64,000 nucleotides of DNA from Escherichia phage 236Ecol005PP, in the sequence record PP434423.1, one strand, 5' to 3'. Each line of letters opens with the position of its first letter. Position 1 is the first letter of the stretch. Of the stretch, positions 4,861 to 58,232 are shown piece by piece. The position numbers were made by a program, and so were the translations under genes. The notes under the pieces were generated by a model. That model was not told the origin of the DNA. It searched no databases and saw nothing but the letters and a program-made list of their open reading frames with translations.

Positions 4861-4869
4861 AAGTTATCC

Positions 4870-5550: not shown

Positions 5551-5563
5551 AATATTTCCTCAG

Positions 5564-5571
5564 TATAAATA
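5564..5571 (+). promoter_or_regulatory. late promoter TATAAATA upstream of segD
   Basis: exact TATAAATA 29 nt upstream of segD ATG. Confidence 0.5.
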
Positions 5572-5599
5572 TAGATATATTTATTACTCGGAAAATAGT

Positions 5600-6217: not shown

Positions 6218-6219
6218 TT

Positions 6220-7728: not shown

Positions 7729-7753
7729 GGGCTTCGGCCCTTTGGAGAAAAAG

Positions 7754-33314: not shown

Positions 33315-34106
33315 TCACATATTGTGTATAAGCACTTCAGTCTGAAATGATGCACCTTTCTTTTGCTTCCTATACATGGTTTCAAAATATTCAATTTTGA
33401 AATTATTAGAAAGGGCCCAATCTTTTAAAATATAATTATTAATATCGTCTGATAGATTATTAGTGATAATAAATTTAGACTTCGATTGTTTAATTTTGTC
33501 TAATAATTCTAATTCATCCTTTTCTTCCCAGCCTGAATATTTAAATTTAGTAGAAAGATATGGCGGGTCAATGAATAAATTTTTGTTTTCAAAATCCAAA
33601 TCTCTGAATGATTTATTACTAAATGTAAATCTGTGTTGTCTATTTTTAAATTCAGAAAATTTATCCTGCTGAGACTTATTAAAAGAAGTTCTGGAATACT
33701 TGGCTCTATTGGCGAAAGCCGCGTTATAATTCCCATTACTAGAAAATCGGATTAACGAACTGAATGAAAATAAATGTAGAACATAAAGATATAGTCCGTT
33801 TTTGGTTTTATCGTATTCTTTTGACAGATTATAAAAAGGTGCTGAATCTTTGTCATTCAAATTAAAGTCTTCAATAATTTGAACTATATCATTAATTGAA
33901 GATGATTTCATCTTATTATACATATCTATAAGAGGAGTATTAATATCATTACATATAACATCTCTCTGACAATTCATAGAAAATCCAAGACCACCACAAA
34001 AAGCATCCAAAACAGGCTTATCGTCAAAGCGGTTTGAAAATTGTCTAATAAATGGCATATACTTATGTTTTGCACCTGGATATGTTATGGCAGGTAGGTC
34101 TTTCAT
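33315..34106 (-). CDS. Dam-family N6-adenine DNA methyltransferase
   Basis: motif I FCGGLG near N-terminus, motif IV DPPY around residue 181, Dam-like region LYVLH...F..IR..NG.YN. Confidence 0.7.
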   Translation of the reverse strand: MKDLPAITYPGAKHKYMPFIRQFSNRFDDKPVLDAFCGGLGFSMNCQRDVICNDINTPLIDMYNKMKSSSINDIVQIIEDFNLNDKDSAPFYNLSKEYDKTKNGLYLYVLHLFSFSSLIRFSSNGNYNAAFANRAKYSRTSFNKSQQDKFSEFKNRQHRFTFSNKSFRDLDFENKNLFIDPPYLSTKFKYSGWEEKDELELLDKIKQSKSKFIITNNLSDDINNYILKDWALSNNFKIEYFETMYRKQKKGASFQTEVLIHNM

Positions 34107-34149: not shown

Positions 34150-35139
34150 TCATAATTTACAGGATGAACAATCTTCAGCTTTTGGAGTTTCTATTTCGTA
34201 ATCATCAGTACCGGAACCATCACGAGTATTATGATAATAGAAGTTTTTAATGCCATAATACCATCCATATAGCATGTCATCAATCATTATTGACATTGGA
34301 ACCTTTCCTTTTGGAAAAATCTGCGGGTCATAATATGTATTCGCTGAAGCTGATTGACATACCCATTTAAGCATAATAGCTACCTGCGTAAGATAAGGTT
34401 TATTACCTTTCTTAGCTAATTTCCACGTATAATCATATAGGTCTATGTTATGTTCAATATTGGGCACGACTTGATTAAAGGAACCCTCTTTTGATTCTTT
34501 AACAGAGACTGGTCCACGTGGAGGCTCGATACCATTAGTACTGTTAGAAACTTGGGAAGATGACTCACATGGCATAAGTGCTGATAATGTGCTATTACGG
34601 ATGCCAAAGAGCTTAAGGTCTTCCCGCAGCGCCGACCAGTCACAAACGTATTTTGGAGCTGCGATTTGGTCAATCTTTTTATTGTACCAGTCGATAGGTA
34701 ATTCGCCTCGAGACCAACGAGTGTCTGAATAATATTCGCAAGGTCCTTTTTCTTTGGCGAGCTTAATGGATGCTTTAATGAGTCCATACTGTAATCTCTC
34801 AAATAGTTCATGTGTTAAATCGTTAGCATCTTCATAAGAAGCAAAGTTACTTGCCAGCCAAGCTGCATAGTTAGTAACACCTACACCAAGATTTCGACGC
34901 TTTTTAGCTTTTTCTGCTTCAGGAACTGGATATCCTTGGTAATCCAAAAGATTATCAAGAGCACGAACTTGGACTTCTGCTAATTCATTAATTTTATCTT
35001 GGTCTTGCCAATCGAAGTTATCCAACACAAATGCGCTAAGGGTACAAAGCCCCACTTCTCCCTTGTTTTCAATAACTTCTATTGTAGTATACTCATCATC
35101 TTCGTAAAATTCATCTACAAATTCATAATCAATATTCAT
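34150..35139 (-). CDS. nrdA: ribonucleotide reductase alpha subunit, C-terminal piece
   Basis: contains LCTLSAF active-site segment and C-terminal CSSCKL tail; own ATG and RBS inside the 3' end of the HNH gene. Confidence 0.8.
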   Translation of the reverse strand: MNIDYEFVDEFYEDDEYTTIEVIENKGEVGLCTLSAFVLDNFDWQDQDKINELAEVQVRALDNLLDYQGYPVPEAEKAKKRRNLGVGVTNYAAWLASNFASYEDANDLTHELFERLQYGLIKASIKLAKEKGPCEYYSDTRWSRGELPIDWYNKKIDQIAAPKYVCDWSALREDLKLFGIRNSTLSALMPCESSSQVSNSTNGIEPPRGPVSVKESKEGSFNQVVPNIEHNIDLYDYTWKLAKKGNKPYLTQVAIMLKWVCQSASANTYYDPQIFPKGKVPMSIMIDDMLYGWYYGIKNFYYHNTRDGSGTDDYEIETPKAEDCSSCKL

Positions 35140-35974
35140 TTAATTCTTCTACCTTTTTTCTAGTAATTCCTAAAGCTTTAGATGCTCGATGTATTGATTG
35201 ATATTCTATACCGTTTATTTTTACAGCAATTAAGTTATGGGGTTTTAATCCCTTTGGATGAGGTTTACTGACGAAAACTAAATTATCAAGCTCTGAAATC
35301 TTATCCAATTTCTTACACTTAAATCCTTTGTGATGCGCCCGTTTACCTTTACAAACGGCTGACATCGCAGATGGATTTAAATTATGCTCTTTACAAAATT
35401 CGTTAAGACCTCGATGAATTTCCTCATGACCATCTGGAAATGTAAACACCCAAGACGTTTGAAGTCGAGATTTAACTTCTGGAGACATAGGAATACCTTT
35501 GTTCCAGGCCGGTTTGCCTTTATTATTTTCAGATACAGAAATAGCCAATTTTCTTCTAAGCCACCCATGTCGTTTATTGGTGTTCTTTCGTTCAATATTA
35601 TCTTCAGAATAAACACACATCATATTAGCGGCAAATATCAATTTATGATTATCTGGATATATCTTTACTAATAATTGATGAGCTATGTAATGCTCTTCTG
35701 GTGTCAAATCTACCAGGTTTTCCTTTGTATCAGAACCACCAATACACAGAGGTATAATATGATGTGATTCGGTATAGCAATCTAATTTTCTGTTCTTAGC
35801 TTTAGAAATAAGGTTATTGTAAATTTTAGAATAATCCATAACTTTTCCTCTTGTTATGGATTATTTATTAACGGTCTGTGTACTTTATTTGCTTTGAATT
35901 ATACCGCCAGGATTAGCTTCATAAAACTTAGCTACATCCGACTTCTTAATTTTAATTAAACGGGTTTGTTGACT
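35071..35974 (-). mobile_element. inserted HNH homing-endonuclease cassette splitting nrdA (approximate limits)
   Basis: limits set where NrdA similarity stops in the upstream ORF and resumes in the downstream ORF. Confidence 0.6.
35129..35839 (-). CDS. HNH homing endonuclease (Mob-like)
   Basis: N-terminal HNH motif (ESHHIIP...GGSD..EN...LTPEEH), NUMOD-like GKPAWNKG repeat, C-terminal HTH; strong GAGGA RBS. Confidence 0.8.
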   Translation of the reverse strand: MDYSKIYNNLISKAKNRKLDCYTESHHIIPLCIGGSDTKENLVDLTPEEHYIAHQLLVKIYPDNHKLIFAANMMCVYSEDNIERKNTNKRHGWLRRKLAISVSENNKGKPAWNKGIPMSPEVKSRLQTSWVFTFPDGHEEIHRGLNEFCKEHNLNPSAMSAVCKGKRAHHKGFKCKKLDKISELDNLVFVSKPHPKGLKPHNLIAVKINGIEYQSIHRASKALGITRKKVEELNEY

Positions 35975-37318
35975 ATTCACATCATTTGTTGGAATAGCAA
36001 TTTCACAACACAAGTTACTCTGACGAATAGGTGCTTTTTCACGAATAAATGGAGTATAGTTATTCGTATTATCAATGAACTGCACATAAATCCTTGCTGT
36101 TCCTGAGCGTTCAGTCATTAGCAATTCAAACAGTTCACGGGCTTTAATACGCTTTTTACGAATATTAGGGTCTTTTTCTGCGGCTTCATATAATTCACGG
36201 AAACGGTCTTGGTCTTTAAAATAAGAATAATAAAGCTCACCACCCATTTCATGTGGACTGAACAAAGTAATGTAGTCGTTCTTTCCAAAACGTTCCATCA
36301 TCAAATCATTCAGCTGGACGCCATAATCCATATGACGGATACGGTTTTCTTCTACACCTTTGTTATTTTTCAAAACGAGAAGATTTTCAACTTCCAAATG
36401 CCAAATAGGATAATAAGCAGTAGCAGCGCCGCCACGAATTCCACCCTGTGAGCATGATTTAACAGCAGTCTGAAAATGTTTCCAAAAAGGAATAACACCA
36501 GTATGGCGTACTTCACCTGTACCAATCTTAGAACCTTCGGCACGAATCATACCAACGTTAATACCAATTCCAGCGCGTTTGGAGATATATTCAACAATTG
36601 AAGCGGAAACCTTATTGATAGACTTCAGCGAATCACCTGCCTCAATAACAACACATGAACTAAACTGTCGAGTCGGAGTACGACAGCCAGCCATAATAGG
36701 AGTTGGCAATGAAATCTGTCGAGTAGATACTGCTTCATAAAAACGAATAACGTGTTTTAGTCTATCAACAGGTTCATCTTGATGCAATGCCATTCCAATA
36801 GTCATAAATGCAAACTGCGGAGTTTCATAAATTTGACCAGTGGTTTTATCTTTAACTAGATATTTTTCTTTTAATTGCATCGCCCCGGAATAAGTAAATT
36901 CCATATCCCGCTCATGCTTAATTTTTGATTCTAAAAATGTAATTTCTTCTGCTGAATATTTTGACAGCAGTTCAGGGTCATATTTACCTTCATTTACACA
37001 GTAAGAAATATGGTCAATAAATGAACGTGGTTCATATTGTCCGTAAACATGCTTACGAAGAGCAAACATTAAACAGCGTGCAGCTACATATTGATAATCA
37101 GGCTCTTCAACTGAAATAGAATTCGCAGCAGCCTTAATTACAATGGTTTGAATGTCATCAGTGGTCATTCCATCACGGAGATATGATTTAATATTTTCAT
37201 ATAATTCATAAGGATCTACAGATGTTCCTTCAGCTGCCCAAGATAAAACTTTAATAATTTTTTGCGGGTCAAAGCTCTGAGAAACACCACTACTTTTGAT
37301 AACATTAATTAATTGCAT
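35885..37318 (-). CDS. nrdA: ribonucleotide reductase alpha subunit, N-terminal piece
   Basis: ATP-cone and catalytic core up to SNLCCEIAIPTNDVN, then 29 unrelated codons and a stop. Confidence 0.8.
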   Translation of the reverse strand: MQLINVIKSSGVSQSFDPQKIIKVLSWAAEGTSVDPYELYENIKSYLRDGMTTDDIQTIVIKAAANSISVEEPDYQYVAARCLMFALRKHVYGQYEPRSFIDHISYCVNEGKYDPELLSKYSAEEITFLESKIKHERDMEFTYSGAMQLKEKYLVKDKTTGQIYETPQFAFMTIGMALHQDEPVDRLKHVIRFYEAVSTRQISLPTPIMAGCRTPTRQFSSCVVIEAGDSLKSINKVSASIVEYISKRAGIGINVGMIRAEGSKIGTGEVRHTGVIPFWKHFQTAVKSCSQGGIRGGAATAYYPIWHLEVENLLVLKNNKGVEENRIRHMDYGVQLNDLMMERFGKNDYITLFSPHEMGGELYYSYFKDQDRFRELYEAAEKDPNIRKKRIKARELFELLMTERSGTARIYVQFIDNTNNYTPFIREKAPIRQSNLCCEIAIPTNDVNSQQTRLIKIKKSDVAKFYEANPGGIIQSK

Positions 37319-37635
37319 AAGTCCTCAACTTGAAAATCGTCTTTAAACAATCGGTTAACTATATGAGCTATTATATCACCATGACACGGCTTTGGTTTAC
37401 ATGTGCATCCTAGCCTCATTCCACGTAAAGGCTCTAAATGTGCTTTAGTTATTTCTCCGGATTTAATTCGACGTATAAAATCTTTTTTGAATAATTCAAT
37501 GGCAGCCTCCCGGCTGCCAGCATCTTTACCGACGTAATTTCCCCAAAATGTACCGCGGTGAATATTAACATCAAAGTCGGATTTATATTTATTCACTACC
37601 TGGCATAGACGGCCCGCGCGGTAATAGTTCGTCAT
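37309..37635 (-). CDS. DUF4326-like small protein (T4 nrdA.1 position)
   Basis: FWGN...[13 protein letters not shown] pattern; ORF-track start may be over-extended. Confidence 0.5.
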
Positions 37636-37875: not shown

Positions 37876-38187
37876 TTACACCGCCATTTTTCCTTTAATA
37901 GGAGGGTGTGATTCGTAACCTTTAAGAACGAAATCTTTAGGCCTGAGTTTAAGAGTGTATTCCAATTGTTCTTTAGTAGAAAGATAGCGGAATTTATAAG
38001 GCAATCCGCCTATTACCAGTTCACAAAGCTCTTTAGGTTCACGACGTAAAATTTCTTTACATTGTTCTACGTGATTCATATAGATATGAGTATTACCACC
38101 AGAAAATATCAAATCTCCTGGAATAAGATTACACATCTTAGCTACAATATGAACTAACGCAGCATATGATGCAATATTAAATGGAAG
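37876..38187 (-). CDS. td: thymidylate synthase, exon 2
   Basis: C-terminal TS sequence; the ORF-track initial Met is the intron-terminal ATG. Confidence 0.9.
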   Translation of the reverse strand, partial: LPFNIASYAALVHIVAKMCNLIPGDLIFSGGNTHIYMNHVEQCKEILRREPKELCELVIGGLPYKFRYLSTKEQLEYTLKLRPKDFVLKGYESHPPIKGKMAV

Positions 38188-38441
38188 CATTATGTTCAGA
38201 TAAGGTCGTTAATCTTATCCCGGAATTATATCCAGCTGCATGTCACCATACAGATCAGACTATATCTCCATCTTGATGAAGCAAGATGTCTATCGTTTCG
38301 AGTCACTTGACCCTACTCCCCAAAGGGATAGTCGTTAGGCATTTAGTTCAAAAGAACATTTAGCACGGGATTGTCTACTAGAGAGGTTCCCCGTTTAGAT
38401 AGATTACAAGTATAAGTCACCTTATACTCAGGCCTCAATTA
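38188..38441 (-). ncRNA. group I self-splicing intron in td, lacking any homing-endonuclease ORF
   Basis: starts TAATTGAGGCCTGAG... and ends ...CTGAACATAATG like the T4 td intron core; exon 1 ORF stops at the intron-initial TAA. Confidence 0.85.
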
Positions 38442-38990
38442 ACCCAAGAAAACATCTACACTTCTTTGGTACCATTGTAAATCAAGATAACCATTACGCA
38501 CATTAAACTGATAGAACATATGACAGGGCGGTAATGCCATTTGATTGATTTCAGCTGGATTCCATGCTGAAACGATTTGACGTCGATCAGTTGGTAATTT
38601 TTTAATACGATCAATAGTTTCAACTAATTGATCCACACCACCGAAATCACGCCATTGTTTACCGTATATAGGACCAAGTTCACCACTATGATATCCTAGG
38701 TCTTTAGCCTGGTTTTCATAGTTATCGTCCCAAATAGTTTTACCTTGAATAAGACTACCATGAGTGCGAAGACGTAAATCATTAACATTGGTAGAACCGG
38801 AAATAAACCATAGAAGCTCAGCAATGCAAGCTTTCCAAGCGAGCTTCTTAGTCGTTACTGCAGGAAAACCTTTAGTTAAATCCCAACGTAATTTAGTACC
38901 GAACAAAGCAATTGTTCCTGTGCCTGTTCGGTCATCGGTTTCATAGCCATTTTCAAAAATGTCTTTAATTAAATCTTGGTATTGTTTCAT
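38442..38990 (-). CDS. td: thymidylate synthase, exon 1
   Basis: N-terminal TS sequence including the catalytic PPCH motif. Confidence 0.9.
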
Positions 38991-44310: not shown

Positions 44311-44318
44311 TATAAATA
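44311..44318 (+). promoter_or_regulatory. late promoter TATAAATA for gene 34
   Basis: exact motif 35 nt upstream of gene 34 ATG. Confidence 0.6.
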
Positions 44319-44352: not shown

Positions 44353-47300
44353 ATGGCCGAGATTAAAAGAAAGTTCAGAGCAGAAGATGGTCTGGACGCA
44401 GGTGGCGATAAAATAATCAACGTAGCTTTAGCTGATCGTACCGTAGGAACTGACGGTGTTAACGTTGATTACTTAATTCAAGAAAACACAGTTCAACAAT
44501 ACGATCCAACTCGTGGATATTTAAAAGATTTTGTAATCATTTATGATAACCGCTTTTGGGCTGCTATAAATGATATTCCAAAACCGGCAGGAGCTTTTAA
44601 TAGCGGACGCTGGAGAGCATTACGTACTGATGCTAACTGGATCACAGTTTCATCTGGTTCATATCAATTAAAATCCGGTGAAGCGATTTCGGTTAACACT
44701 GCAGCCGGTAATGATATTACATTTACTTTACCATCTTCCCCAATTGACGGTGACACTATCGTTCTCCAAGATATTGGAGGAAAACCTGGAGTTAATCAAG
44801 TTTTAATTGTAGCTCCAGTGCAAAGTATTGTAAACTTTAGAGGTGAACAGGTACGTTCAGTACTAATGACTCATCCAAAATCACAGATAGTTTTAATTTT
44901 TAGTAATCGTCTGTGGCAAATGTATGTTGCTGATTATAGTAGAGAAGCTATAGTTGTAACACCAGCGAATACTTATCAAGCGCAATCCAACGATTTTATC
45001 GTGCGTAGATTTACTTCTGCTGCACCAATTAATGTTAAACTTCCAAGATTTGCTAATCATGGCGATATTATTAATTTCGTCGATTTAGATAAACTAAATC
45101 CGCTTTATCATACAATTGTTACTACATACGATGAAACGACTTCAATACAAGAAGTTGGAACTCATTCCATTGAAGGCCGTACAACGATTGACGGTTTCTT
45201 GATGTTTGATGATAATGAGAAATTGTGGAGATGGTTTGACGGGGATAGTAAAGCGCGTTTACGCATTATAACGACTAATTCTAATATTCGTCCAAATGAA
45301 GAAGTTATGGTATTTGGTGCGAATAACGGAACAGCTCAGACAATTGAACTTCAGCTTCCTACTGATATCTCTGTTGGTGATACTGTTAAAATTTCCATGA
45401 ATTACATGAGAAAAGGACAAACAGTTAAAATCAAAGCTGCCGGTGAAGATAAAATTGCTTCTTCAGTTCAATTGCTGCAATTCCCAAAACGTTCAGAATA
45501 TCCGCCTGAAACTAAATGGGTAACTGTTCAAGAATTAGTTTTTAATGGTGAAACTAATTATGTTCCAGTTTTACAACTTGCTTATATAGAAGATTCTGAT
45601 GGAAAATACTGGGTTGTACAGCAAAACGTTCCAACTGTAGAAAGAGTAGATTCTTTAAATGATTCTACTAGAGCAAGATTAGGCGTAATTGCTTTAGCTA
45701 CACAAGCTCAAGCTAATGTTGATTTAGAAAATTCTCCACAAAAAGAATTAGCAATTACTCCAGAAACGTTAGCTAATCGTACTGCTACTGAAACTCGTAG
45801 AGGTATCGCAAGAATAGCAACTACTGCTCAAGTGAATCAGAACACCACATTCTCTTTTGCTGATGATCTTATCATTACTCCTAAAAAGCTGAATGAAAGA
45901 ACTGCTACAGAAACTCGCAGAGGTGTTGCTGAAATTGCTACGCAGCAAGAAACTAATACAGGTACTGATGATACTACAATCATCACTCCTAAAAAGCTTC
46001 AAGCTCGTCAGGGTTCTGAATCATTATCTGGTATTGTAACTTTTGTATCTACTGCAGGTGCTACTCCAGCTTCTAGCCGTGAATTAAATGGTACGAATGT
46101 TTATAATAAAAACACTAATAATTTAGTTGTTTCACCTAAAGCTTTGGATCAGTATAAAGCTACTCCAACACAGCAAGGTGCAGTAATTTTAGCAGTTGAA
46201 AGTGAAGTAATTGCTGGACAAAGTCAGCAAGGATGGGCAAATGCGGTTGTAACACCAGAAACGTTACATAAAAAGACATCAACTGATGGAAGAATTGGTT
46301 TAATTGAAATTGCTACGCAAAGCGAAGTTAATACAGGAACTGATTATACTCGTGCAGTCACTCCTAAAACTTTAAATGACCGTAGAGCAACTGAAAGTTT
46401 AAGTGGTATAGCTGAAATTGCTACACAAGTTGAATTCGACGCAGGCGTCGACGATACTCGTATCTCTACACCATTAAAAATTAAAACCAGATTTAATAGT
46501 ACTGATCGTACTTCTGTTGTTGCTCTATCTGGATTAGTTGAATCAGGAACTCTCTGGGACCATTATACCCTTAATATTCTTGAAGCAAATGAGACACAGC
46601 GTGGTACACTTCGTGTAGCTACACAAGTTGAAGCTGCTGCAGGAACATTAGATAATGTTTTAATAACTCCTAAAAAGCTTTTAGGTACTAAATCTACCGA
46701 ATCGCAAGAAGGTGTTATTAAAGTTGCGACTCAGTCTGAAACTGTAACTGGAACGTCAGCAAATACTGCTGTATCTCCAAAAAATTTAAAATGGATTGCG
46801 CAGAGTGAACCTACTTGGGCAGCTACTACTGCGATAAGAGGCTTTGTTAAAACTTCATCTGGTTCAATTACATTCGTTGGTAATGACACAGTTGGTTCTA
46901 CACAGAACTTAGAGCTATACGAGAAAAATAGCTATGCAGTATCACCATATGAATTAAACCGCGTATTAGCAAATTATTTGCCGTTAAAAGCAAAAGCCGC
47001 TGACACAAATTTATTGGATGGTCTAGATTCATCCCAGTTCATTCGTAGGGATATTGCACAGACGGTTAATGGTTCACTAACCTTAACCCAACAAACGAAT
47101 CTGAGTGCCCCTCTTGTATCATCTAGTACTGCTACGTTTGGTGGATCAGTTTCGGCAAATAGTACATTAACTATTTCTAATACTGGAACGGCAACTCGTC
47201 TGATTTTTGAGAAAGGACCTCAGACTGGAACTAACCCAGTACAGACGATGACTATCAGAGTTTGGGGAAATCAGTTTGGTGGCGGTTCAGATACAACACG

Positions 47301-48222
47301 TTCTACTGTATTTGAAGTTGGTGATGAAACTTCTAATCACTTTTATTCTCAACGTAATAAAGCTGGGAATATAACGTTTAGTATCAATGGTACTGTGATG
47401 CCGATAAACGTTAATGCTTCGGGTTCTTTGAACGCGGGCGGCGTTGCAACATTTGGTAGTTCAGTTACTGCTAATGGTGAATTCATCAGCAAGTCTGCAA
47501 ATGCCTTTAGAGCTATTAATGGTAATTACGGATTCTTTATTCGCAATGATGGCACTAATACCTATTTTTTGCTCACTGCATCTGGTGATCAGACTGGCGG
47601 ATTTAATGGATTACGTCCTTTAGCTATTAACAATCAGTCCGGTCAAGTAACGATTGGTGAAAGCTTAATCATTGCCAAAGGTGCTACTATAAATTCAGGT
47701 GGTTTGACTGTTAACTCGAGAATTCGTTCTCAAGGCACTAAAACATCTAATTTATATACTCGTGCACCAACATCTGATACTGTAGGATTCTGGTCAATCG
47801 ATGTTAATGATTCAGCTACTTATAACCAGTTCCCAGGTTATTTTAAAATGGTTGAAAAAACTAATGAAGTGACTGGACTTCCATACTTAGAACGCGGAGA
47901 AGAGGTTAAATCTCCTGGTACATTGACTCAGTTTGGTAACACACTTGATTCGCTTTACCAAGATTGGATTACTTATCCAACGACTCCAGAAGCACGTACC
48001 ACTCGCTGGACACGCACATGGCAGAAAACCAAAAACTCCTGGTCAAGTTTTGTTCAGGTATTTGACGGAGGTAACCCTCCTCAACCATCTGATATTGGTG
48101 CTTTACCATCTGATAATGCTACAATGGGGAATCTTACTATTCGTGATTTCTTACGAATTGGTAATGTTCGCATTATTCCTGACCCAGTGAATAAAACGGT
48201 TAAATTTGAATGGGTTGAATAA
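44353..48222 (+). CDS. 34: long tail fibre proximal subunit gp34
   Basis: 1289-aa ORF with repeated ~35-aa fibre motifs. Confidence 0.9.
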   Translation: MAEIKRKFRAEDGLDAGGDKIINVALADRTVGTDGVNVDYLIQENTVQQYDPTRGYLKDFVIIYDNRFWAAINDIPKPAGAFNSGRWRALRTDANWITVSSGSYQLKSGEAISVNTAAGNDITFTLPSSPIDGDTIVLQDIGGKPGVNQVLIVAPVQSIVNFRGEQVRSVLMTHPKSQIVLIFSNRLWQMYVADYSREAIVVTPANTYQAQSNDFIVRRFTSAAPINVKLPRFANHGDIINFVDLDKLNPLYHTIVTTYDETTSIQEVGTHSIEGRTTIDGFLMFDDNEKLWRWFDGDSKARLRIITTNSNIRPNEEVMVFGANNGTAQTIELQLPTDISVGDTVKISMNYMRKGQTVKIKAAGEDKIASSVQLLQFPKRSEYPPETKWVTVQELVFNGETNYVPVLQLAYIEDSDGKYWVVQQNVPTVERVDSLNDSTRARLGVIALATQAQANVDLENSPQKELAITPETLANRTATETRRGIARIATTAQVNQNTTFSFADDLIITPKKLNERTATETRRGVAEIATQQETNTGTDDTTIITPKKLQARQGSESLSGIVTFVSTAGATPASSRELNGTNVYNKNTNNLVVSPKALDQYKATPTQQGAVILAVESEVIAGQSQQGWANAVVTPETLHKKTSTDGRIGLIEIATQSEVNTGTDYTRAVTPKTLNDRRATESLSGIAEIATQVEFDAGVDDTRISTPLKIKTRFNSTDRTSVVALSGLVESGTLWDHYTLNILEANETQRGTLRVATQVEAAAGTLDNVLITPKKLLGTKSTESQEGVIKVATQSETVTGTSANTAVSPKNLKWIAQSEPTWAATTAIRGFVKTSSGSITFVGNDTVGSTQNLELYEKNSYAVSPYELNRVLANYLPLKAKAADTNLLDGLDSSQFIRRDIAQTVNGSLTLTQQTNLSAPLVSSSTATFGGSVSANSTLTISNTGTATRLIFEKGPQTGTNPVQTMTIRVWGNQFGGGSDTTRSTVFEVGDETSNHFYSQRNKAGNITFSINGTVMPINVNASGSLNAGGVATFGSSVTANGEFISKSANAFRAINGNYGFFIRNDGTNTYFLLTASGDQTGGFNGLRPLAINNQSGQVTIGESLIIAKGATINSGGLTVNSRIRSQGTKTSNLYTRAPTSDTVGFWSIDVNDSATYNQFPGYFKMVEKTNEVTGLPYLERGEEVKSPGTLTQFGNTLDSLYQDWITYPTTPEARTTRWTRTWQKTKNSWSSFVQVFDGGNPPQPSDIGALPSDNATMGNLTIRDFLRIGNVRIIPDPVNKTVKFEWVE

Positions 48223-48230
48223 GAGGTATT

Positions 48231-49346
48231 ATGGAAAAATTTATGGCAGAGTTTGGACAAGGATATGTCCAAACGCCATTTTTATCGGAAAGTAATTCAG
48301 TAAGATACAAAATAAGTATAGCGGGTTCTTGCCCGCTTTCTACTGCAGGACCATACGTTAAATTTCAGGATAATCCTGTCGGAAATCAAACATTTAGCGC
48401 CGGTCTTCATTTAAGAGTTTTTGACCCTTCTACAGGAGCATTAGTTGATAGTAAGTCATATGCTTTTTCGACTTCAGATGATACTACATCAGCTGCTTTT
48501 GTTAGTTTCATGAATTCTTTGACGAATAATAGACTTGTTGCTATATTAACTAACGGAAAAGTTAATTTTCCTCCTGAAGTAGTATCTTGGATAAGAACCG
48601 CAGGAACGTCTGCTTTTCCATCTGATTCTATATTGTCAAGATTCGACGTATCATATGCTGCTTTTTACACTTCTTCTAAAAGAGCTATTGCATTAGAGCA
48701 TGTTAAATTAAGTAATAGAAAAAGCACAGATGATTATCAAACTATTTTAGATGTTGTATTTGACAGTTTAGAAGACGTTGGAGCTACAGGATTTCCTAAA
48801 AGAACATACGAAAGCGTTGAGCAATTTATGTCGGCAGTTGGTGGAACTAATAACGAAATTGCGCGATTACCAACTTCAGCTGCTATAAGTAAACTCTCTG
48901 ATTATAATTTAATTCCTGGCGATGTGCTTTATCTTAAAGCTCAATTATATGCTGATGCTGATTTACTTGCGCTTGGAACTACAAATATATCTATCCGTTT
49001 TTATAATGCATCTAACGGATATATTTCCTCGACACAAGCTGAGTTTACCGGACAAGCTGGGTCTTGGGAATTAAAGGAAGATTATGTAGTTGTTCCAGAA
49101 AATGCTGTGGGATTTACGATATATGCACAAAGAACTGCACAAGCCGGTCAAGGTGGTATGAGGAATTTAAGCTTTTCTGAAGTGTCAAGAAATGGAGGTA
49201 TTTCGAAACCTGCTGAATTTGGCGTCAACGGCATTCGTGTTAATTATATCTGTGAATCTGCTTCACCTCCGGATATAATGGTACTTCCTACGCAAGCATC
49301 GTCTAAAACTGGTAAAGTGTTTGGGCAAGAATTTAGAGAAGTATAA
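48231..49346 (+). CDS. 35: long tail fibre hinge protein gp35
   Basis: 371-aa ORF, synteny. Confidence 0.85.
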   Translation: MEKFMAEFGQGYVQTPFLSESNSVRYKISIAGSCPLSTAGPYVKFQDNPVGNQTFSAGLHLRVFDPSTGALVDSKSYAFSTSDDTTSAAFVSFMNSLTNNRLVAILTNGKVNFPPEVVSWIRTAGTSAFPSDSILSRFDVSYAAFYTSSKRAIALEHVKLSNRKSTDDYQTILDVVFDSLEDVGATGFPKRTYESVEQFMSAVGGTNNEIARLPTSAAISKLSDYNLIPGDVLYLKAQLYADADLLALGTTNISIRFYNASNGYISSTQAEFTGQAGSWELKEDYVVVPENAVGFTIYAQRTAQAGQGGMRNLSFSEVSRNGGISKPAEFGVNGIRVNYICESASPPDIMVLPTQASSKTGKVFGQEFREV

Positions 49347-49377: not shown

Positions 49378-49385
49378 TATAAATA
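49378..49385 (+). promoter_or_regulatory. late promoter TATAAATA for gene 36
   Basis: exact motif 23 nt upstream of gene 36 ATG. Confidence 0.6.
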
Positions 49386-49408: not shown

Positions 49409-50071
49409 ATGGCTGATTTAAAAGTAGGTTCAACAACTGGAGGCTCTGTCATTTGGCATCAAGGAAATTTTCCATTGAATCCAGCCGGTGACGATGTACT
49501 CTATAAATCATTTAAAATATATTCAGAATATAATAAACCACAAGCTGCAGATAACGATTTCGTTTCTAAAGCTAATGGTGGTACTTACGCCGCGACCGTT
49601 CGATTTAATGGAGGAGTACATGTTCCTACTATAGGTAGTAGTCAACAGTGTGGTGTTTATCCAGGTAACGGTGATGCAGCTACTTTTGCTATGGCAAATA
49701 TTGACATCGTTTCGTGGAATGGTATTGGTTTTAAATCATCACAAGGTTCAGCAGACCGAACTGTTGTTGTTAACACTCGTACTGGTGATATCAGCACTAA
49801 GGGTGGTATTTATGCAACTGGACCCGTCCGTTCTAACGTTACGGCTCCAGTTGCAGCAAATGACCTTACTAGAAAGGACTATGTTGATGGAGCAATAAAT
49901 ACTGTTACGGCAAATGCGAACTCTAGAGTGTTACGATCTGGCGACACTATGACGGGTAACTTAACCGCACCAAACTTTTTCTCGCAGAATCCTGCATCTC
50001 AACCTTCACACGTTCCACGATTTGACCAAATCGTAATTAAGGATTCTGTTCAAGATTTCGGCTATTATTAA
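49409..50071 (+). CDS. 36: long tail fibre distal connector gp36
   Basis: 220-aa ORF, synteny. Confidence 0.85.
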
Positions 50072-50079
50072 GAGGACTT

Positions 50080-53000
50080 ATGGCTACTTTAAAACAAATA
50101 CAATTTAAAAGAAGCAAAACCGCAGGTGCACGTCCTGCTGCTTCAGTATTAGCCGAAGGTGAATTGGCTATAAACTTAAAAGATAGAACAATTTTTACTA
50201 AAGACGATTCAGGAAATATCATTGATCTAGGTATTGCTAAAGGCGGTCAAATTGATGGAAATGTGACTATTGATGGAACTTTACGCGTCAATGGACCAAT
50301 AAACAACTTTGGAAATTTTTCTACAAGTGGTACTATCACGGCAAGTAATATTGTTTCTGCTACAGTATTCAGATCAACATCCGGTTCATTTTATACAAGA
50401 GCAATAAATGATACAGCAAATGCCCATCTTTGGTTTGAAAATACAAATGGATCAGAGAGAGGTGTTTTATATTCAAAACCACAGTCTGAAAATGAAGGCG
50501 TAATTACAATGCGTGTTCGCCAAGGAACCGCAGCAGGGGCTCAAAATTCAGAATTTCATTTCATTTCTACTGATGGCGGTATCTTCCAGGCACGCAAATT
50601 AACTGCTTTAACTTCTATTAGTACACCAACTATTAGTGTTAATTTAATTAATCATGATTCTAAAGCCTTTGGACAATATGATTCACAATCTTTGGTCAAC
50701 TATGTTTATCCTGGAACCGGTGAAACAAACGGTATAAACTATCTTCGTAAAGTTCGCGCTAAAGCTGCCGGAACCATGTGGCACGAAATCTGTACAGCTC
50801 AGACCGGCCAAGCAGATGAAATGTCTTGGTGGACAGGTAATACTCCATCATCTAAACAATATGGCATTCGTAATGACGGACGAATGGCAGGCCGTAATAG
50901 CCTTGCATTAGGTACATTCACTACGGGTTTCCCGTCTAGTGATTATGGTAACGTCGGTGTAATGGGCGATAAGTATCTTGTTCTCGGTGACACTGTAACC
51001 GGTCTGAAATATATTAAGCAAGGTGTTTATGATTTAGTTGGTGGAGGTTATTCCGTTGCATCTATTACCCCGGATAGTTTCCGTAGTACTCGTAAAGCAA
51101 TATTTGGACGCTCAGAAGACCAAGGTGCAACATGGATTATGCCTGGAACCAACGCTGCGGCTTTATCGGTTCAAACACAAGCTGATGAAAACACTGCTGG
51201 AGACGGCCAGACACATATTGGCTATAACTCAGGCGGTAAAATGAACCACTATTTCCGTGGTAAAGGCAAAACTAATATTAATACTCAAGAAGGCATGGAA
51301 GTTAACCCGGGTATTCTTAAACTAGTAACCGGTGCTAACAGTATTAGCTTTAACGCTGCAACAGGTAATATTGATTCTACATTAGCTTTTCGTCTTAATA
51401 AAGGTATAATTATTGATGGACCTGATAATCAGGGATTCCAATTTAATGCTCCGACGGCTGTAGATGGTACTAGAAGCATATACTGGAATAGTGGCACTCG
51501 CGCAGGTCAAAACAAAAACCCTGTTACAGTTAAAGTGTGGGGTAATTCATTTAACGCATCTGGTGATCGTAGTCGTGAAACCGTTTTTGAAGTAGCTGAT
51601 GGGCAAGGTTACCATTTTTATTCTCAACGCGTAGCTCCTGCACCTGGTTCGACTGTCGGGCCTATTCAACTCCGAGTTAATGGTGGTTTATTAACTTCAG
51701 GTAGTATTGTTACTTCTGGTTCTATTACAACCGAATCAAGCTTAGTTGCAAATAATGGATTGTCTGTAAATGGACAAGCTAAATTTGGCGGAACAGCAAA
51801 CGCACTAAGAATTTGGAACGCTGAATATGGTGCTATTTTCCGTCGTTCGGAAAGTAACTTTTATATTATTCCAACCAATCAAAATGAAGGCGAAAGCGGA
51901 GACATTCACAGCTCTTTGAGACCTGTGAGAATAGGATTAAACGATGGCATGGTTGGGTTAGGAAGAGATTCTTTTATAGTAGATCAAAATAATGCTTTAA
52001 CTACTATAAACAGTAACTCTCGCATTAATGCCAACTTTAGAATGCAATTAGGACAAAACGCTTATATAGATATTGAAGCTTCTGACGGCATTCGTCCAGC
52101 AGGGTGTGGTTCATTTGCATCCCAGAATGACGTAAACGTCAGAGCTCCAATTTATATGAATATAGAGCGTACTGCTACTTCTGAATATATTCCTATTGTT
52201 AAACAGCGTTATGTGCAAGGTGATAGCACTTATTCTATTGGGACATTAATTAATCAAGGAGATTTCCGTGTTCATTATCACCAGGGAACTAGCACCAATG
52301 GCGTAGATTTGAGTTGGGAATTCCGTCGCACAGGCGATTTCCGCGCGGCAGGTAAAATTATTGCCGGTGCTGCTACTCTTGGCACTGATGGTAATATCAC
52401 GGGCGGTTCAGGAAACTTTGCTAACTTGAATACAACTTTAAACCGTAAAGTGAATTCTGGTTTTATTACTTATGGAGCAACTGCAGGTTGGTACAAGTTT
52501 GCAACAGTAACAATGCCTCAAGCTACATCAACCGTTTCAATTACAGTCACTGGCGGAAATGGATTTAATTCTGGATCATTTAATCAGTGCGCAATTTCTG
52601 AAATTGTTCTTCGTACAGGAAACAATAATCCTAAAGGATTAAATGCTGTTCTATATAGAAGAGGACTAAATTCATTTAGAGATATTGCTTGGGTTAATAC
52701 ATCTGGTGATACATATGACATTTATGTTAATATGGGAACATATGCTAATCAGTTGATATTTAACTATAGTTCTGTTGATAACGCTACAGTTCAAATTATT
52801 GGCGCATTCAGTTCAGCCCAAAATCCTGTTGATGCATTGCCAGGAACATATATTAAAGGTCAGGTAGCAGATGTATTAACTAACTTAGTTGATTCTGGAA
52901 AAACGAAACGTTTTGTTGCTGAATCTGAAATAGCTGTTAATAATCAAACTGGATTACGTATTACGAGTAATGGTGATAAATCTGGTTCAAATTCAGTATT

Positions 53001-54003
53001 ATTCAGAAATGACGGTGGAAGTTTCTATATTTTACTGACCGACAAAAACTCTTCAGACGGCGATAATAAAGCAACTGAAGGTGATTGGAATGGAAAACGA
53101 CCGTTTTCAATTGATATGACTGCTGGTACTGTTCGTCTTGGCGAAAATACTTCTTTTAGTAAAGATGTTACTATTGATGGAAACATTAATTCACGAGTTA
53201 AAGTTGTCGGACAGTGGAATGTTAGCTTTTCTGATATTTCAGATGTGACTCGTGACCGTTCTGCATTTTTAGTGAATACGGGTGCTATAACAGCTACAAG
53301 CCAATCTTATTATCCATTGTTTTCTGGGTATAGTTATTTGAAAGATACTGGATATTGTCAATCATTTGAATTTGGATGGTTAGGTGTTTCTGGTACTTGG
53401 CGTCAAGGCATTATTCGCATGCGTGGTGACAGTACATCAGGGCAACAGGCTCGTTGGACTTTTGATATGGACGGAACATTTTATGCTCCTATACTATCAT
53501 GCGGATCTGCGAGAGCATTCGGTGTCAATACATCAAATGGTCTCGGTGGAAACAGTATAACATTTGGTGATAGCGATACTGGTATTAAGCAAAATGGCGA
53601 TGGATTATTAGACATATATGCGAACAACGTACAAGTATTCCGTTTCCAAAATGGCGATTTGTACTCATATAAAAATATAAATGCTCCAAACGTTTATATT
53701 CGTTCTGATATTCGTTTAAAATCCAACTTTAAACCTATCGAAAACGCACTTGATAAAGTTGAAAAACTTAACGGTGTCATTTACGATAAAGCTGAATACA
53801 TCGGTGGAGAGGCAATTGAAACTGAAGCGGGTATTGTGGCTCAAACTTTACAAGACGTTTTACCAGAAGCTGTCCGTGAAACAGAAGACAGTAAGGGTAA
53901 TAAAATACTCACTGTTTCTTCTCAAGCCCAGATTGCTCTTCTGGTTGAAGCTGTGAAAACACTTTCTGCTCGTGTAAAAGAACTTGAATCTAAACTTATG
54001 TAA
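50080..54003 (+). CDS. 37: long tail fibre distal subunit gp37 (T2-type, with C-terminal chaperone-like domain)
   Basis: 1307-aa ORF, longer than T4 gp37; C-terminal ~100 aa resemble intramolecular-chaperone domains of fibre proteins. Confidence 0.9.
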
Positions 54004-54033
54004 AAGAGGGCTTCGGCCCTCTAAGGATTTTTA

Positions 54034-54816
54034 ATGGCAATTGTAGGTGTTCCTGGCTGGATTGGCGAATCTGCCGTGAATGAAACTGGACAACGTTGGA
54101 TGGATGCTGCGATGAAAGCAGTTCGTGTTTCAGTTCCCGGTTGGATGAGCTCAATGGCTGGACAATCTAAAGAAATACATTACAGCATTGGTGCTAGCAA
54201 TTCTTATAATAAAGACACACTAATAAATTGGATAAAAGCTCAAGGAAGTACTCCTGTTGTTATTACAATTACAGGCAATATCGTTTCTCACTCTACCGGC
54301 GTTCCGTGTCTGGATTTCCCTAGTTCGTTGACCAACGCATATGTTACGTTGATCATTAACTCCGGTGTGACTGTCTATGGACGCGGTGGCAATGGTGGTA
54401 GTAACGCTGGTGGTGGCGCTGGTGGTAACGCAATTAATAATGGCATCGGTACACGCTTGCGTATTACGAATAATGGTGCAATCGCTGGAGGTGGTGGCGG
54501 TGGTGGCGGCGGTAACTACGGTAGACTATCATTTGGTGGTGGTGGTGGTCGCCCATTCGGTGCTGGCGGGTCTTCCAATCATATGAGTTCCGGTGCAACC
54601 GCTGGCTCCATTTCCGCTCCAGGTAAAGGATCTGCTGGTGAGGGGTCTCTTCATGTATATAAAGGCGGGAATGGCGGTGAAGTTGGCTCTGCTGGAGGAA
54701 GATGTAATATTCAAGGGAACGGTACAGAATATAACGGCGGCGCAGCAGGTAAAGCTGTTACTGGTAATGCTCCAACTTGGACTAAAGTTGGTACAATATA
54801 TGGTTCAAGAGTATAA
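54034..54816 (+). CDS. 38: gp38 receptor-recognising adhesin (T2 type) with polyglycine tracts
   Basis: 260-aa ORF with several glycine-rich stretches flanking short variable segments. Confidence 0.8.
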   Translation: MAIVGVPGWIGESAVNETGQRWMDAAMKAVRVSVPGWMSSMAGQSKEIHYSIGASNSYNKDTLINWIKAQGSTPVVITITGNIVSHSTGVPCLDFPSSLTNAYVTLIINSGVTVYGRGGNGGSNAGGGAGGNAINNGIGTRLRITNNGAIAGGGGGGGGGNYGRLSFGGGGGRPFGAGGSSNHMSSGATAGSISAPGKGSAGEGSLHVYKGGNGGEVGSAGGRCNIQGNGTEYNGGAAGKAVTGNAPTWTKVGTIYGSRV

Positions 54817-54847
54817 TTTTGAATAAATATCCTTAAAAGGAGGGTCT

Positions 54848-55504
54848 ATGGCAGCACCTAGAATATCATTTTCGCCCTCTGATATTCTGTTTGGTGTTCT
54901 AGATCGCTTGTTCAAAGATAACGCTACCGGGAATGTTCTTGCTTCCCGGGTAGCTGTCGTAATTCTTTTGTTTATAATGGCGATTGTTTGGTATAGGGGA
55001 GATAGTTTCTTTGAGTACTATAAGCAATCAAAGTATGAAACATACAGTGAAATTATTGAAAAGGAAAGAAATGCACGCTTTGAATCTGTCGCCCTGGAAC
55101 AACTCCAGATAGTTCATATATCATCTGAGGCAGACTTTAGTGCGGTGTATTCTTTCCGCCCTAAAAACTTAAACTATTTTGTTGATATTATAGCATATGA
55201 AGGAAGACTACCTTCAACAATAACCGAAAAATCACTTGGAGGATATCCTGTTGATAAAACTATGGATGAATATACAGTTCATTTAAATGGACGTCATTAT
55301 TATTCCAACTCAAAATTTGCTTTTTTACCGACTAAAAAGCCTACTCCCGAAATAAATTACATGTACAGTTGTCCATATTTTAATTTGGATAACATCTATG
55401 CTGGAACAATAACCATGTACTGGTATAGAAATGATCATATAAGTAATGACCGCCTTGAATCAATATGTTCTCAGGCGGCCAGAATATTAGGAAGGGCTAA
55501 ATAA
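54848..55504 (+). CDS. t: holin T
   Basis: 218-aa ORF with single N-terminal TMD and large periplasmic domain. Confidence 0.9.
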   Translation: MAAPRISFSPSDILFGVLDRLFKDNATGNVLASRVAVVILLFIMAIVWYRGDSFFEYYKQSKYETYSEIIEKERNARFESVALEQLQIVHISSEADFSAVYSFRPKNLNYFVDIIAYEGRLPSTITEKSLGGYPVDKTMDEYTVHLNGRHYYSNSKFAFLPTKKPTPEINYMYSCPYFNLDNIYAGTITMYWYRNDHISNDRLESICSQAARILGRAK

Positions 55505-55777
55505 TTATTTGTTTGTATACATCTCTAGATATCGATATACACCCTCAAAACCCTCGTTGAATTCGTCGATGAGGGTTTTCTTATTTTCTTGGGTTAATTC
55601 AGAAACAATTTTACGGAATGAATTCTGATTCAACTTTCTACCTTCATGCGTTACTCCAATCTCATTCAGAAATGCGATAAAATTAACACGATTCTCAACA
55701 ATATCTTCTCTGGAAAATTTAATCAAAATAGATGCAACAGTAATAATTTCACGAACTGTATCAATGTTTTTATTCAT
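55505..55777 (-). CDS. asiA: anti-sigma-70 factor AsiA
   Basis: 90-aa ORF MNKNIDTVREI..., T4 AsiA length. Confidence 0.9.
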   Translation of the reverse strand: MNKNIDTVREIITVASILIKFSREDIVENRVNFIAFLNEIGVTHEGRKLNQNSFRKIVSELTQENKKTLIDEFNEGFEGVYRYLEMYTNK

Positions 55778-57596: not shown

Positions 57597-58232
57597 TCAC
57601 AGTTCAGATGCTACGGTGATTACAGCTTCAATGTTTTCTGCCGAGCGTTTAATGTCAAGATACACATTACCATTTTTAGCGATTTTACATGACATTCCGA
57701 TATCAGTAAATTTCTGAATATGATGTTCCATCATTTTGTATCCAAAAATTCGCATATTTCCATTGTTGTTAATTTCAAAATTACGAATTCCATGAGTGCG
57801 TTTTTCTAAAATAGCGAGATAGTTACTGCGATAAATTTCAATCTTTTTAACAACAAATCTGGTTTCATTTAAAAGTTTTAACATGAAATCTTTATCTTCT
57901 TCCATATCAGAAGTAATTTCACGAGCTTTACGAGTTGCTCGTTTTTTCAGTAGTTCCGGAGCATTTTCCTGTGCGTATAAAGTTGCTGCATTTGAAATAA
58001 TATCCTGAGCTTCACCCGTAATGATTAATCCATCACCAGATTTCTCCACCAGGCCTTTTTTAATCAATACCCCAATATTACTATTAACTACTGCGTTACC
58101 TAAATCTGGATGCACCTCACGAACTTCTGCAGCTGTAATGAAATCTTTCTTAGCAATGGTAATTAAAATCGCAGCAGTTTTTTCATTCAGAACATCGTTA
58201 GAAGCTTTGATGATGTAAGTTACTTTAGACAT
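57597..58232 (-). CDS. motA: MotA middle-transcription activator
   Basis: 211-aa ORF, T4 MotA length and sequence character. Confidence 0.9.
   Translation of the reverse strand: MSKVTYIIKASNDVLNEKTAAILITIAKKDFITAAEVREVHPDLGNAVVNSNIGVLIKKGLVEKSGDGLIITGEAQDIISNAATLYAQENAPELLKKRATRKAREITSDMEEDKDFMLKLLNETRFVVKKIEIYRSNYLAILEKRTHGIRNFEINNNGNMRIFGYKMMEHHIQKFTDIGMSCKIAKNGNVYLDIKRSAENIEAVITVASEL

Follow-up and report, generated by a model that had tools for sequence, protein, structure and literature searches.

Does the long tail fiber of Escherichia phage 236Ecol005PP end in a separate adhesin, as in phages T2 and S16, or in a receptor-binding tip of gp37 itself, as in T4, and which host protein would that tip recognize? 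We analyzed a 64,000-nucleotide stretch of DNA from this phage (PP434423.1; herein the window), in which comparison of sequence and structure identifies the products of two genes, 37 and 38, as the long-tail-fiber tip of a T-even phage (Table 1). Gene 38 lies directly 3′ of gene 37 and 5′ of the holin gene t, and the canonical order 34-35-36-37-38-t-asiA is kept. The two proteins are identical to NCBI entries WWT49817.1 ("long tail fiber protein") and WWT49818.1 ("receptor-recognizing protein") from 236Ecol005PP, a Tequatrovirus; the top nucleotide match of gene 37 in the phage collection is 88%. This tip-gene arrangement is well known, common and annotated in GenBank. We put a probability of roughly 0.9 on the reading that the pair is a standard T2/S16-type tip module that works as proposed below and probably targets OmpA.

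An exact match to the T4-type late promoter box stands upstream of gene 36, with no second exact box between it and the end of gene t; judged from what is known of T4 late promoters, the 36-37-38 late transcript likely starts there. Between genes 37 and 38, ahead of the Shine-Dalgarno sequence AAGGA, lies a predicted hairpin (fold energy -13.4 kcal/mol) flagged as terminator-like. Shuffling gives it weak statistical support (z = -1.6), and we take it as real because of its conservation across phages: the sequence is the same in T2 and 310Ecol104PP, in Bas45 a single G-to-T change leaves the base pair adjoining the loop mismatched, and RB32 has another hairpin sequence at the same position. An Rfam scan returned no RNA families in the 50-55 kb region. 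Minus-strand and alternative-frame open reading frames of 61 to 85 aa within genes 37 and 38 were without support and were treated as chance.

Table 1. Positions of the fiber-tip genes, their predicted domains and associated elements in the window
Feature	Position	Strand	Remarks
T4-type late promoter box	49378..49385	+	TATAAATA; exact match, 24 nt upstream of gene 36
Gene 37, distal long-tail-fiber subunit precursor	50080..54003	+	ORF, 1307 aa plus stop
gp37 aa 1-787, proximal and middle shaft	50080..52440	+	Collinear with T4 gp37 aa 1-802
gp37 aa 788-1208, T2-type distal shaft	52441..53703	+	Unrelated to T4 needle tip
gp37 aa 1209-1307 plus stop, intramolecular chaperone domain (Peptidase_S74)	53704..54003	+	PF13884
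Hairpin between genes 37 and 38	54005..54022	+	AGAGGGC-UUCG-GCCCUCU
Gene 38, predicted monomeric tail-fiber-tip adhesin	54034..54816	+	ORF, 260 aa plus stop
gp38 aa 1-42, N-terminal attachment domain	54034..54159	+	Pfam Gp38_N (PF21721)
gp38 aa 116-260, specificity domain	54379..54813	+	Glycine-rich motifs alternate with hypervariable loops
Parts of specificity domain (approximate, aa)			G9 tract 152-160; loop 161-167; GGGGGRPFGAGG 168-179; loop 180-210; GGNGGEVGSAGG 211-222; loop 223-234
Holin gene t	54848-55504		Downstream of gene 38

Shaft, docking tip and chaperone domain of gp37

The sequence-only reading had described gp37 as much longer than its T4 counterpart, with its last ∼100 aa resembling a chaperone, and both points hold; at 1307 aa the protein exceeds T4 gp37 (1026 aa) by 281 residues. 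T4 has the same locus and flanking genes, but its gp37 lacks a chaperone domain and binds the receptor through a tip of its own at the end of the protein, and its gp38 (183 aa) is an assembly factor. Were the window organized in this way, gp37 would bear the receptor-binding tip and gp38 would serve only as an assembly chaperone, absent from the virion. Up to aa 787, gp37 is indeed 69% identical to T4 gp37 (BLASTP, 804 columns), and this part includes a Gp34_trimer-like domain at aa 493 through 617 (Pfam PF21446, with PDB matches to gp34). The alignment stops, however, at a 14-residue motif; BLASTP finds no similarity to T4 gp37 past window aa 787 (T4 aa 802), and the T4 tip structure is absent among the PDB matches of gp37 at E ≤ 0.01.

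The distal shaft that follows is mosaic, with aa 801 through 1050 nearest to FJ1 and AV115, and is predicted to end in a gp38-docking tip (aa ∼1151 through 1208). The S16 gp37 tip (PDB: 6F45_A) aligns from aa 1153 onward, and the tips of T2, Bas45 and 310Ecol104PP are 94 to 98% identical to that of the window. With 1341 aa, T2 gp37 is about as long as the window protein, and it is 98 to 100% identical over docking tip and chaperone together (aa 1151 through 1307), whereas large parts of its shaft are 18 to 50% identical. Bas45 gp37 is only 6 to 60% identical across much of aa 50 through 200 and 850 through 1150, and the window shaft ahead of the tip is unrelated to that of S16 and much longer. 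Simple co-variation between the docking tip and the N-terminal domain of gp38 was considered and is not evident; AV115 has a near-identical gp38 N terminus, yet its gp37 is only 60% identical over aa 1151 through 1200.

At the C terminus, residues 1209 through 1266 of 1307 match the Peptidase_S74 profile from end to end (PF13884, positions 1 through 58 of 58; E = 3.7e-15; 56.4 bits, curated cutoff 22), and the last 99 aa of the protein begin with Ser1209. The motif NVYIR^S1209DIRLK1214, with Ser at the putative site and Lys five residues later, aligns with the S16 site ...VS^SDRRIKK, positioned as in PMC7917993, and the Ser-Lys motif is likewise aligned in the match of the C terminus to 6F45_A (E = 1e-12). 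All eight T2-type gp37 proteins examined contain SD.R[LI]K, which T4 lacks; the C terminus also matches the autoproteolytic domain of MYRF (7DC3). Self-cleavage is predicted between Arg1208 and Ser1209, by analogy with the autocleaving chaperone domain of S16 and the equivalent Yersinia Tequatrovirus site DVYIR^SDGRLK (PMC7917993); for T2, PMC3157838 likewise refers to gp37 processing.

The Peptidase_S74 domains of endosialidase tailspikes and other fibers resemble this one in their full Pfam match, their C-terminal position on a trimeric fiber, and their Ser followed by Lys five residues later. Work by Schulz et al. in 2010 reportedly dealt with these intramolecular chaperone domains in endosialidase tailspikes and other phage fibers. 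Cleavage of the endosialidase type simply frees the mature enzyme or fiber, whereas in the window, going by S16, it would bare a site on which a separate adhesin docks.

Fold and glycine tracts of gp38

Two Pfam families account for gp38: PF05268 (E = 1.5e-69), covering aa 47 through 260 with its full profile, and PF21721 (E = 7e-18). The S16 tip adhesin (PDB: 6F45_D) matches over the full length (E = 3.7e-51), though at only 43% identity. An AlphaFold (AF2) model (pLDDT 93.2) compares with that chain at TM 0.80/0.84, and within the PDB it matches the gp38 proteins of S16 and PP01 only (TM 0.76 to 0.88, including 9v85). By sequence and model, gp38 is a member of the T2/S16-type adhesin family with a polyglycine-sandwich fold, in agreement with the T2-type receptor-binding module that had been proposed.

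The S16 gp37-gp38 pair (PDB: 6F45; Dunne et al. 2018, cited in PMC7917993) has the same two-gene layout, combining a gp37 whose C-terminal autocleaving chaperone domain carries an S-D-x-R-x-K motif with a gp38 in which a polyglycine sandwich follows the N-terminal attachment domain; its chaperone domain has 113 residues (PMC7917993), against 99 in the window, where cleavage is predicted. Trp9 and Trp22 of the window gp38 are near-invariant among 62 homologs, and the S16 structure is the source for assigning the Trp prongs a role in docking (PMC7917993).

The T4-type organization fares no better with gp38 than with the end of gp37. The sequence-only reading had set its proposal against an alignment of gp38 with the T4-type chaperone; the two are unrelated, with a BLASTP E value of 45, and the tail-fiber-assembly family is absent from the Pfam matches of gp38. 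Some records do call gp38 homologs "distal long tail fiber assembly catalyst" or "tail assembly protein", but these are names inherited from T4. Given also the full-length match to the crystallized S16 tip adhesin, the T4-type arrangement is refuted at the level of sequence and modeled structure, and we accord it virtually no probability.

It had further been suggested that the phage is T2-like in adsorption despite T4-like content such as segD. Only 83 nt separate the end of gene 23 (751) from the start of gene 24 (835), the interval in which T4 carries segD. The sole GIY-YIG gene found (5600-6217, + strand) lies between inh and uvsW and is 98% identical to T4 SegE; it surfaced in the Pfam scan, a GIY...YIG regular expression having found no match over all long ORFs. 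What had been named segD is segE. segE also occurs in phages with gp38 adhesins, e.g., Shfl2 and AV119. Nor is the adhesin a departure from the genus: gp38 adhesin homologs are present in 763 phage records and are its norm, and it is T4 that is the exception within its own superfamily as to gp38 type (Trojet 2011, PMC3157838).

The glycine-rich character ascribed to the 260-aa gp38 is plain: Gly makes up 24% of the protein and 35% of aa 117 through 260, with a G9 run (aa 152 through 160; nt 54487-54513), a G5 run (aa 168 through 172; nt 54535-54549) and nine GG/GGG pairs. The tracts had been placed at 54385-54640; the start is right, but the motifs run on to 54741. They had also been read as simple GGT/GGC repeats prone to slippage. 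If they acted as contingency repeats, slippage would often alter tract length or frame and so switch or diversify host range. Tandem Repeats Finder reports only two arrays in the glycine-codon region, a period-9 repeat (54486-54513; 28 nt, 3.1 copies, 89% match) and a perfect (TGG)5 (54534-54549), and the first poly-Gly tract has 7 to 10 residues in most homologs.

The claim of slippage-prone repeats is weakly supported. The Gly codons are mixed (GGT 34, GGC 17, GGA 8, GGG 4), the tracts themselves combining GGA, GGT and GGC, with no perfect unit longer than 15 nt. Lengths are largely fixed across 62 homologs (of 57, 35 have 9 Gly and 47 have 5 Gly), and the Gly columns of the specificity domain are invariant, a conservation consistent with constraint by the structure of a polyglycine-II sandwich. 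In T6, loss of glycine-rich motifs by deletion is lethal (PMC3157838), and the diversity of gp38 consists of loop substitutions, not tract lengths. Host-range switching by slippage is in our judgment very improbable. A tblastn search with the specificity domain gained little, the low-complexity filter having trimmed most alignments.

Receptor prediction and its caveat

OmpA is predicted as the receptor of this phage, since it is the receptor of all four of the nearest adhesins for which one has been tested. The closest characterized adhesin, that of Bas45 (PaulHMueller; gp38 93.5% identical), groups with the "type 2" OmpA adhesins FL12, FL18 and FL20 (Lutz et al. 2025), and its OmpA dependence was shown by knockout and complementation (PMC8594841, PMC12032242). 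A host mutant resistant to 310Ecol104PP (91.5%) has an ompA frameshift, OmpA is the receptor of RB49 (86%), and FL18, an OmpA user with HVS2-4 identical to those of Bas45, is 83% identical in the specificity domain. Over that domain FL12, FL18, FL20 and Bas45 are 83 to 90% identical to the window gp38, with the same loop lengths and 13 to 15 substitutions in or beside the loops; identity falls to 69% for T6 (Tsx), 54% for T2 (FadL) and 49% for S16 (OmpC). T2, which uses FadL/OmpF, retains 78% identity in the N-terminal domain but differs in loop lengths, and the S16 receptor is the OmpC of Salmonella.

Alignment with adhesins of known receptor, which the sequence-only reading had proposed, thus favors OmpA through the four nearest relatives but also exposes 15 specificity-domain substitutions relative to Bas45. 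These belong to a total of 17, and most lie in or beside the variable loops: loop 2 (e.g., Y162/R164/S166) and loop 3 (e.g., N182, S192, A201, H207, V208, K210). The specificity domain as a whole is 89.7% identical to that of Bas45, with loop lengths the same, and its ratio of nonsynonymous to synonymous changes is 15:17, compared with 2:20 in aa 1 through 115 (Fisher p = 0.006). Loop 2 carries the variant NYGRLS, and loop 3 with the glycine motif after it carries SLHVYK and then GGNGGEVGS; of the sequences retrieved, only a Logan contig protein (P0001) and an NCBI protein (P0002) share these distinctive variants, whole or in part. One segment, GGNGGEVGSAGGRCNI (aa 211 through 226), equals the T6 protein and not Bas45; a T6-derived recombination patch was considered here and rejected, as the DNA of the region is only 73% identical to T6 and direct exchange is unsupported.

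The substitutions relative to Bas45, 310Ecol104PP and RB49 could have shifted an otherwise identical module off K-12 OmpA, toward Tsx, OmpC, OmpF, OmpW or FadL, toward LPS, or toward a different set of OmpA alleles. Their concentration in the specificity domain and the nonsynonymous excess there would fit such a shift, as would the recurrence of HVS2 YGRLSF and HVS3 SLHVYK/SLWVYT in P0001 and P0002, which marks a distinct sub-lineage. Receptor switches by one to three residues have published precedent: Q206L turns RB51/RB68 from OmpF to OmpW, and in T6-like adhesins a few changes add OmpA or Yersinia recognition (PMC3157838). Prediction by similarity also has known limits, since OmpA-binding adhesins comprise two unrelated sequence types. 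On the other hand, loop lengths overall and most loop residues agree with the four OmpA-using relatives, specificity-domain identity to the Tsx, FadL and OmpC adhesins is much lower, and near relatives in published gp38 phylogenies have a common receptor. We consider it unlikely that the loop variants confer a receptor or OmpA-allele specificity unlike that of Bas45, RB49 and 310Ecol104PP. E. coli OmpA is most likely the receptor, with the 15 substitutions as a caveat.

Proposed working of the module and its meaning

In the proposed T2/S16-type module, gp37 would be synthesized as a 1307-aa precursor whose C-terminal 99-aa intramolecular chaperone would drive trimerization of the fiber. The chaperone would then remove itself by Ser1209/Lys1214-dependent autoproteolysis at Arg1208/Ser1209, laying bare the hydrophobic trimer tip of gp37, as suggested by S16 and T2. 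A single copy of gp38 would dock on this tip through its N-terminal domain (aa 1 through 42 plus linker), a virion location drawn from characterized homologs, and its polyglycine sandwich (aa ∼116 through 260) would hold the loops toward an outer-membrane protein. Going by the relatives, that protein would most likely be OmpA, bound in reversible adsorption.

Descriptions already exist for the architecture, for the chaperone that cleaves itself off, for the polyglycine fold and for the mosaic way in which the locus has evolved, and so no new biological question is opened. A gp38 of the Bas45/RB49 lineage at the fiber tip yields a testable receptor prediction, OmpA, of limited practical value; it may be useful for phage cocktail design and for anticipating resistance via ompA loss. 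The window adds one further allele to the catalog of loop variants used in training receptor-prediction models. Should the less likely shift in specificity prove true, it would represent a natural case of loop-level retargeting inside the "type 2" OmpA adhesin lineage.

The gp37–gp38 module within the tail-fibre operon

Genes 37 and 38 adjoin within the canonical T-even late tail-fibre operon (see table) and form a textbook module that is already annotated: exact look-up in NCBI returns gp37 as WWT49817.1 ("long tail fiber protein") and gp38 as WWT49818.1 ("receptor-recognizing protein"), both of Escherichia phage 236Ecol005PP and carried by a 167,705-bp sequence. The T4 late-promoter box (TATAAATA) occurs without mismatch ahead of gene 34 (at 44311) and of gene 36 (at 49378); no exact copy was found nearer genes 37 or 38 than 49378. 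At 54822-54829 (+) a version with one mismatch, AATAAATA, precedes the start codon of holin t by 19 nt and could serve t as a late promoter; the spacer around it is nearly identical in Bas45, 310Ecol104PP, T2, and RB32. The two UUCG hairpins are similar to the well-known stable C(UUCG)G hairpins that lie between cistrons in T4 mRNAs. The one following gene 37 is kept in T2, 310Ecol104PP, and Bas45; RB32 has a different hairpin in the same place.

Features of the window and their positions
Feature	Position	Strand	Remarks
gene 23, partial	ends at 751		
gene 24	835-2118		
segE	5600-6217	+	GIY-YIG homing-endonuclease gene between inh and uvsW; 98% identical to T4 SegE
methyltransferase ORF	33315-34106	-	263 aa; between nrdA and nrdB
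nrdA piece	34150-35139	-	329 aa
endonuclease ORF	35129-35839	-	236 aa; between nrdA pieces
nrdA piece	35885-37318	-	477 aa
DUF4326 ORF	37309-37635	-	108 aa; between td exon 2 and nrdA
td exon 2	37876-38190	-	Pfam positions 176-266
group I intron RF00028	38236-38451		72.7 bits (Rfam)
td exon 1	38439-38990	-	Pfam positions 1-175
gene 34	44353-48222	+	Gp34 domains
gene 35	48231-49346	+	
hairpin, G+C-rich, UUCG tetraloop	49350-49371	+	directly 3' of gene 35, just before gene 36 late promoter; T-rich run after
gene 36	49409-50071	+	Phage_T4_gp36
gene 37	50080-54003	+	ORF, 1307 aa
hairpin, G+C-rich, UUCG tetraloop	54005-54022	+	directly 3' of gene 37; T-rich run after
gene 38	54034-54816	+	ORF, 260 aa
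nine GG/GGG pairs in gp38	between 54385 and 54741	+	
G9 run in gp38	54487-54513	+	
G5 run in gp38	54535-54549	+	
holin t	54848-55504	+	Phage_holin_T
asiA	55505-55777	-	downstream of t, opposite strand
motA	57597-58232	-	downstream of asiA, opposite strand

segE and interrupted genes

The sequence-only reading named segD as T4-like content, despite which adsorption would be T2-like. T4 carries segD in the gene 23-24 interval and segE between inh and uvsW; as only 83 nt separate genes 23 and 24 here, segD is absent, and the gene in the window is segE. Nor does the "despite" hold: 763 phage records contain a homologue of the gp38 adhesin, segE is present at 98 to 100% identity in many gp38-adhesin phages (e.g., Shfl2 and AV119), and T4's own arrangement is described as the exception within its superfamily (PMC3157838).

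Other genes of the window are interrupted. The gene for thymidylate synthase, td, is in two exons, with the group I intron in a gap of ~250 nt that is too short for an I-TevI-like ORF. The ribonucleotide reductase gene nrdA is in two pieces; in the Ribonuc_red_lgC profile the break falls at position ~220, and the endonuclease ORF between the pieces bears an I-HmuI NUMOD-like domain; nrdA is annotated twice in related phage records too. The neighboring ORFs encode a protein with DUF4326 (E 1e-21) and a D12-class N6-adenine DNA methyltransferase (PF02086, E 1e-23); T4 dam is not known to lie in the nrdA-nrdB interval.

Chaperone domain and mosaic shaft of gp37

gp37 was proposed to be extended with a chaperone-like C terminus, and the Pfam match, a cleavage motif, and comparison with T4 gp37 (1026 aa) bear this out. 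A complete Peptidase_S74 domain ("chaperone of endosialidase") spans aa 1209-1266 (E 3.7e-15, 56 bits against a cutoff of 22) and begins within NVYIR-S1209-DIRLK1214, S1209 lying 99 residues before the C-terminal end. In the PDB, the C-terminal 167 aa match the S16 gp37 tip (6F45 chain A, E 1e-12), with SDIRLK aligned over S16 SDRRIK, and more weakly the MYRF autoproteolytic domain (7DC3); no solved T4 gp37 tip was among the matches. S16 gp37 is cleaved at ...VS^SDRRIKK, and Yersinia Tequatroviruses have the equivalent DVYIR^SDGRLK (PMC7917993); T2 gp37 has been known to undergo proteolytic processing since 1986 (reference in PMC3157838). The motif SD.R[LI]K occurs in all eight T2-type gp37 proteins retrieved (the window, 310Ecol104PP, AV115, FJ1, Bas45, T2, RB32, and T6) and is absent from T4 gp37. 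An extended, chaperone-ended gp37 is a general property of phages carrying a gp38 adhesin.

Chaperone domains in these phages fall into two classes, ~45% identical, both of which keep the VYIR-SD.RLK site: the T2 class ends in ...KELESKLM (the window, T2, Bas45, 310Ecol104PP, FJ1, and AV115) and the T6/RB32 class in ...KISNYFKF (RB32 gp37, 4648-7731 of retrieved sequence L005; T6 gp37, 1929-4913 of L006).

T4 gp37 is collinear with aa 1-787 at 69% identity, with no homology to it past the 14-residue motif that ends this region. Judged by its nearest relatives, gp37 is a patchwork: aa 1-800 are closest to 310Ecol104PP (86 to 100%), aa 801-1050 to FJ1 and Mosigvirus AV115 (90 to 100%), and the docking tip (predicted gp38 docking site) with the chaperone domain (aa 1151-1307) is 94 to 100% identical to T2, Bas45, and 310Ecol104PP. 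Over its full 4.7 kb, the module reaches no more than 88% nucleotide identity to any phage in the collection (310Ecol104PP), against 94 to 96% for many Tequatroviruses elsewhere in the window. Pfam also finds a Gp34_trimer-like domain (aa 493-617). Residues 973-1137 (52996-53490, +) resemble a divergent repeat of the shaft domain at T4 gp37 aa 595-772, equivalent to aa 586-757 here (25% identity to the T4 domain, E 0.007); as two Gp34_trimer stretches are also reported in gp37 (Pfam), part of its extra length would be an internal duplication.

Fold, glycine tracts, and predicted receptor of gp38

The adjacent gp38 is a T2-type adhesin, as proposed. GP38 (full profile, E 1.5e-69) and Gp38_N (E 7e-18) together span the entire protein, which aligns end to end with the crystallized S16 adhesin (6F45_D, E 3.7e-51) and also matches the PP01 gp38 receptor-binding domain (9v85). 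The AlphaFold2 prediction for gp38, made from 62 homologues (mean pLDDT 93), matches only these two PDB entries (TM 0.76 to 0.88; all others E > 3). Similarity to the T4 gp38 chaperone was absent (E 45), which further favors this assignment. The nearest relatives are PaulHMueller/Bas45 (93.5%), 310Ecol104PP (91.5%), and the Krischvirus RB49 group (86%); a 98%-identical protein occurs in a Logan assembly.

The glycine runs and pairs are present as described; their supposed proneness to slippage finds little support. The DNA repeats are short and imperfect (an array of period 9 over 28 nt, and a perfect (TGG)5), their codons are mixed, and tract lengths are largely kept: among the 57 of 62 homologues with two long runs, the first has 9 Gly in 35 and 7 to 10 in most others, and the second has 5 Gly in 47. 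Many Gly columns are invariant across all 62. Such conservation suggests structural constraint rather than a switch driven by slippage. Conserved glycine motifs have been proposed as recombination anchors for loop swapping (PMC3157838). A T6-like stretch at aa 211-226 was the one candidate tried for such an exchange, and its DNA did not bear the exchange out.

Relative to Bas45, the N-terminal 115 aa carry 20 synonymous and 2 nonsynonymous changes and the specificity domain (aa 116-260) 17 and 15, a significant nonsynonymous enrichment (Fisher p = 0.006) and the usual pattern at this locus (PMC3157838). Four close relatives have an assigned receptor, and in each case it is OmpA: Bas45 (knockout and complementation; PMC8594841), 310Ecol104PP (ompA frameshift in a resistant host mutant; PMC11510089), FL18 (knockout; PMC12032242), which has the same hypervariable segments HVS2-4 as Bas45, and RB49 (RB-TnSeq screens, modeled bound to OmpA with AlphaFold3; preprint, bioRxiv 10.64898/2026.04.02.716166). 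Specificity-domain identity is much lower to adhesins using other receptors (T6/Tsx 69%, T2/FadL 54%, S16/OmpC 49%); it is 46% to RB32, of the other OmpA type. We therefore predict OmpA as the receptor, with a probability of roughly 0.7 to 0.8. The caveat is real: gp38 has loop variants of its own (Y162, R164, S166; N182, S192, A201, H207, V208, K210; N213, E216, S219; I226), which could give it another receptor or another range of OmpA alleles, and redirection of specificity by single loop changes is documented (PMC3157838; bioRxiv 10.64898/2026.04.02.716166).

The original observation is real and its core interpretation correct.
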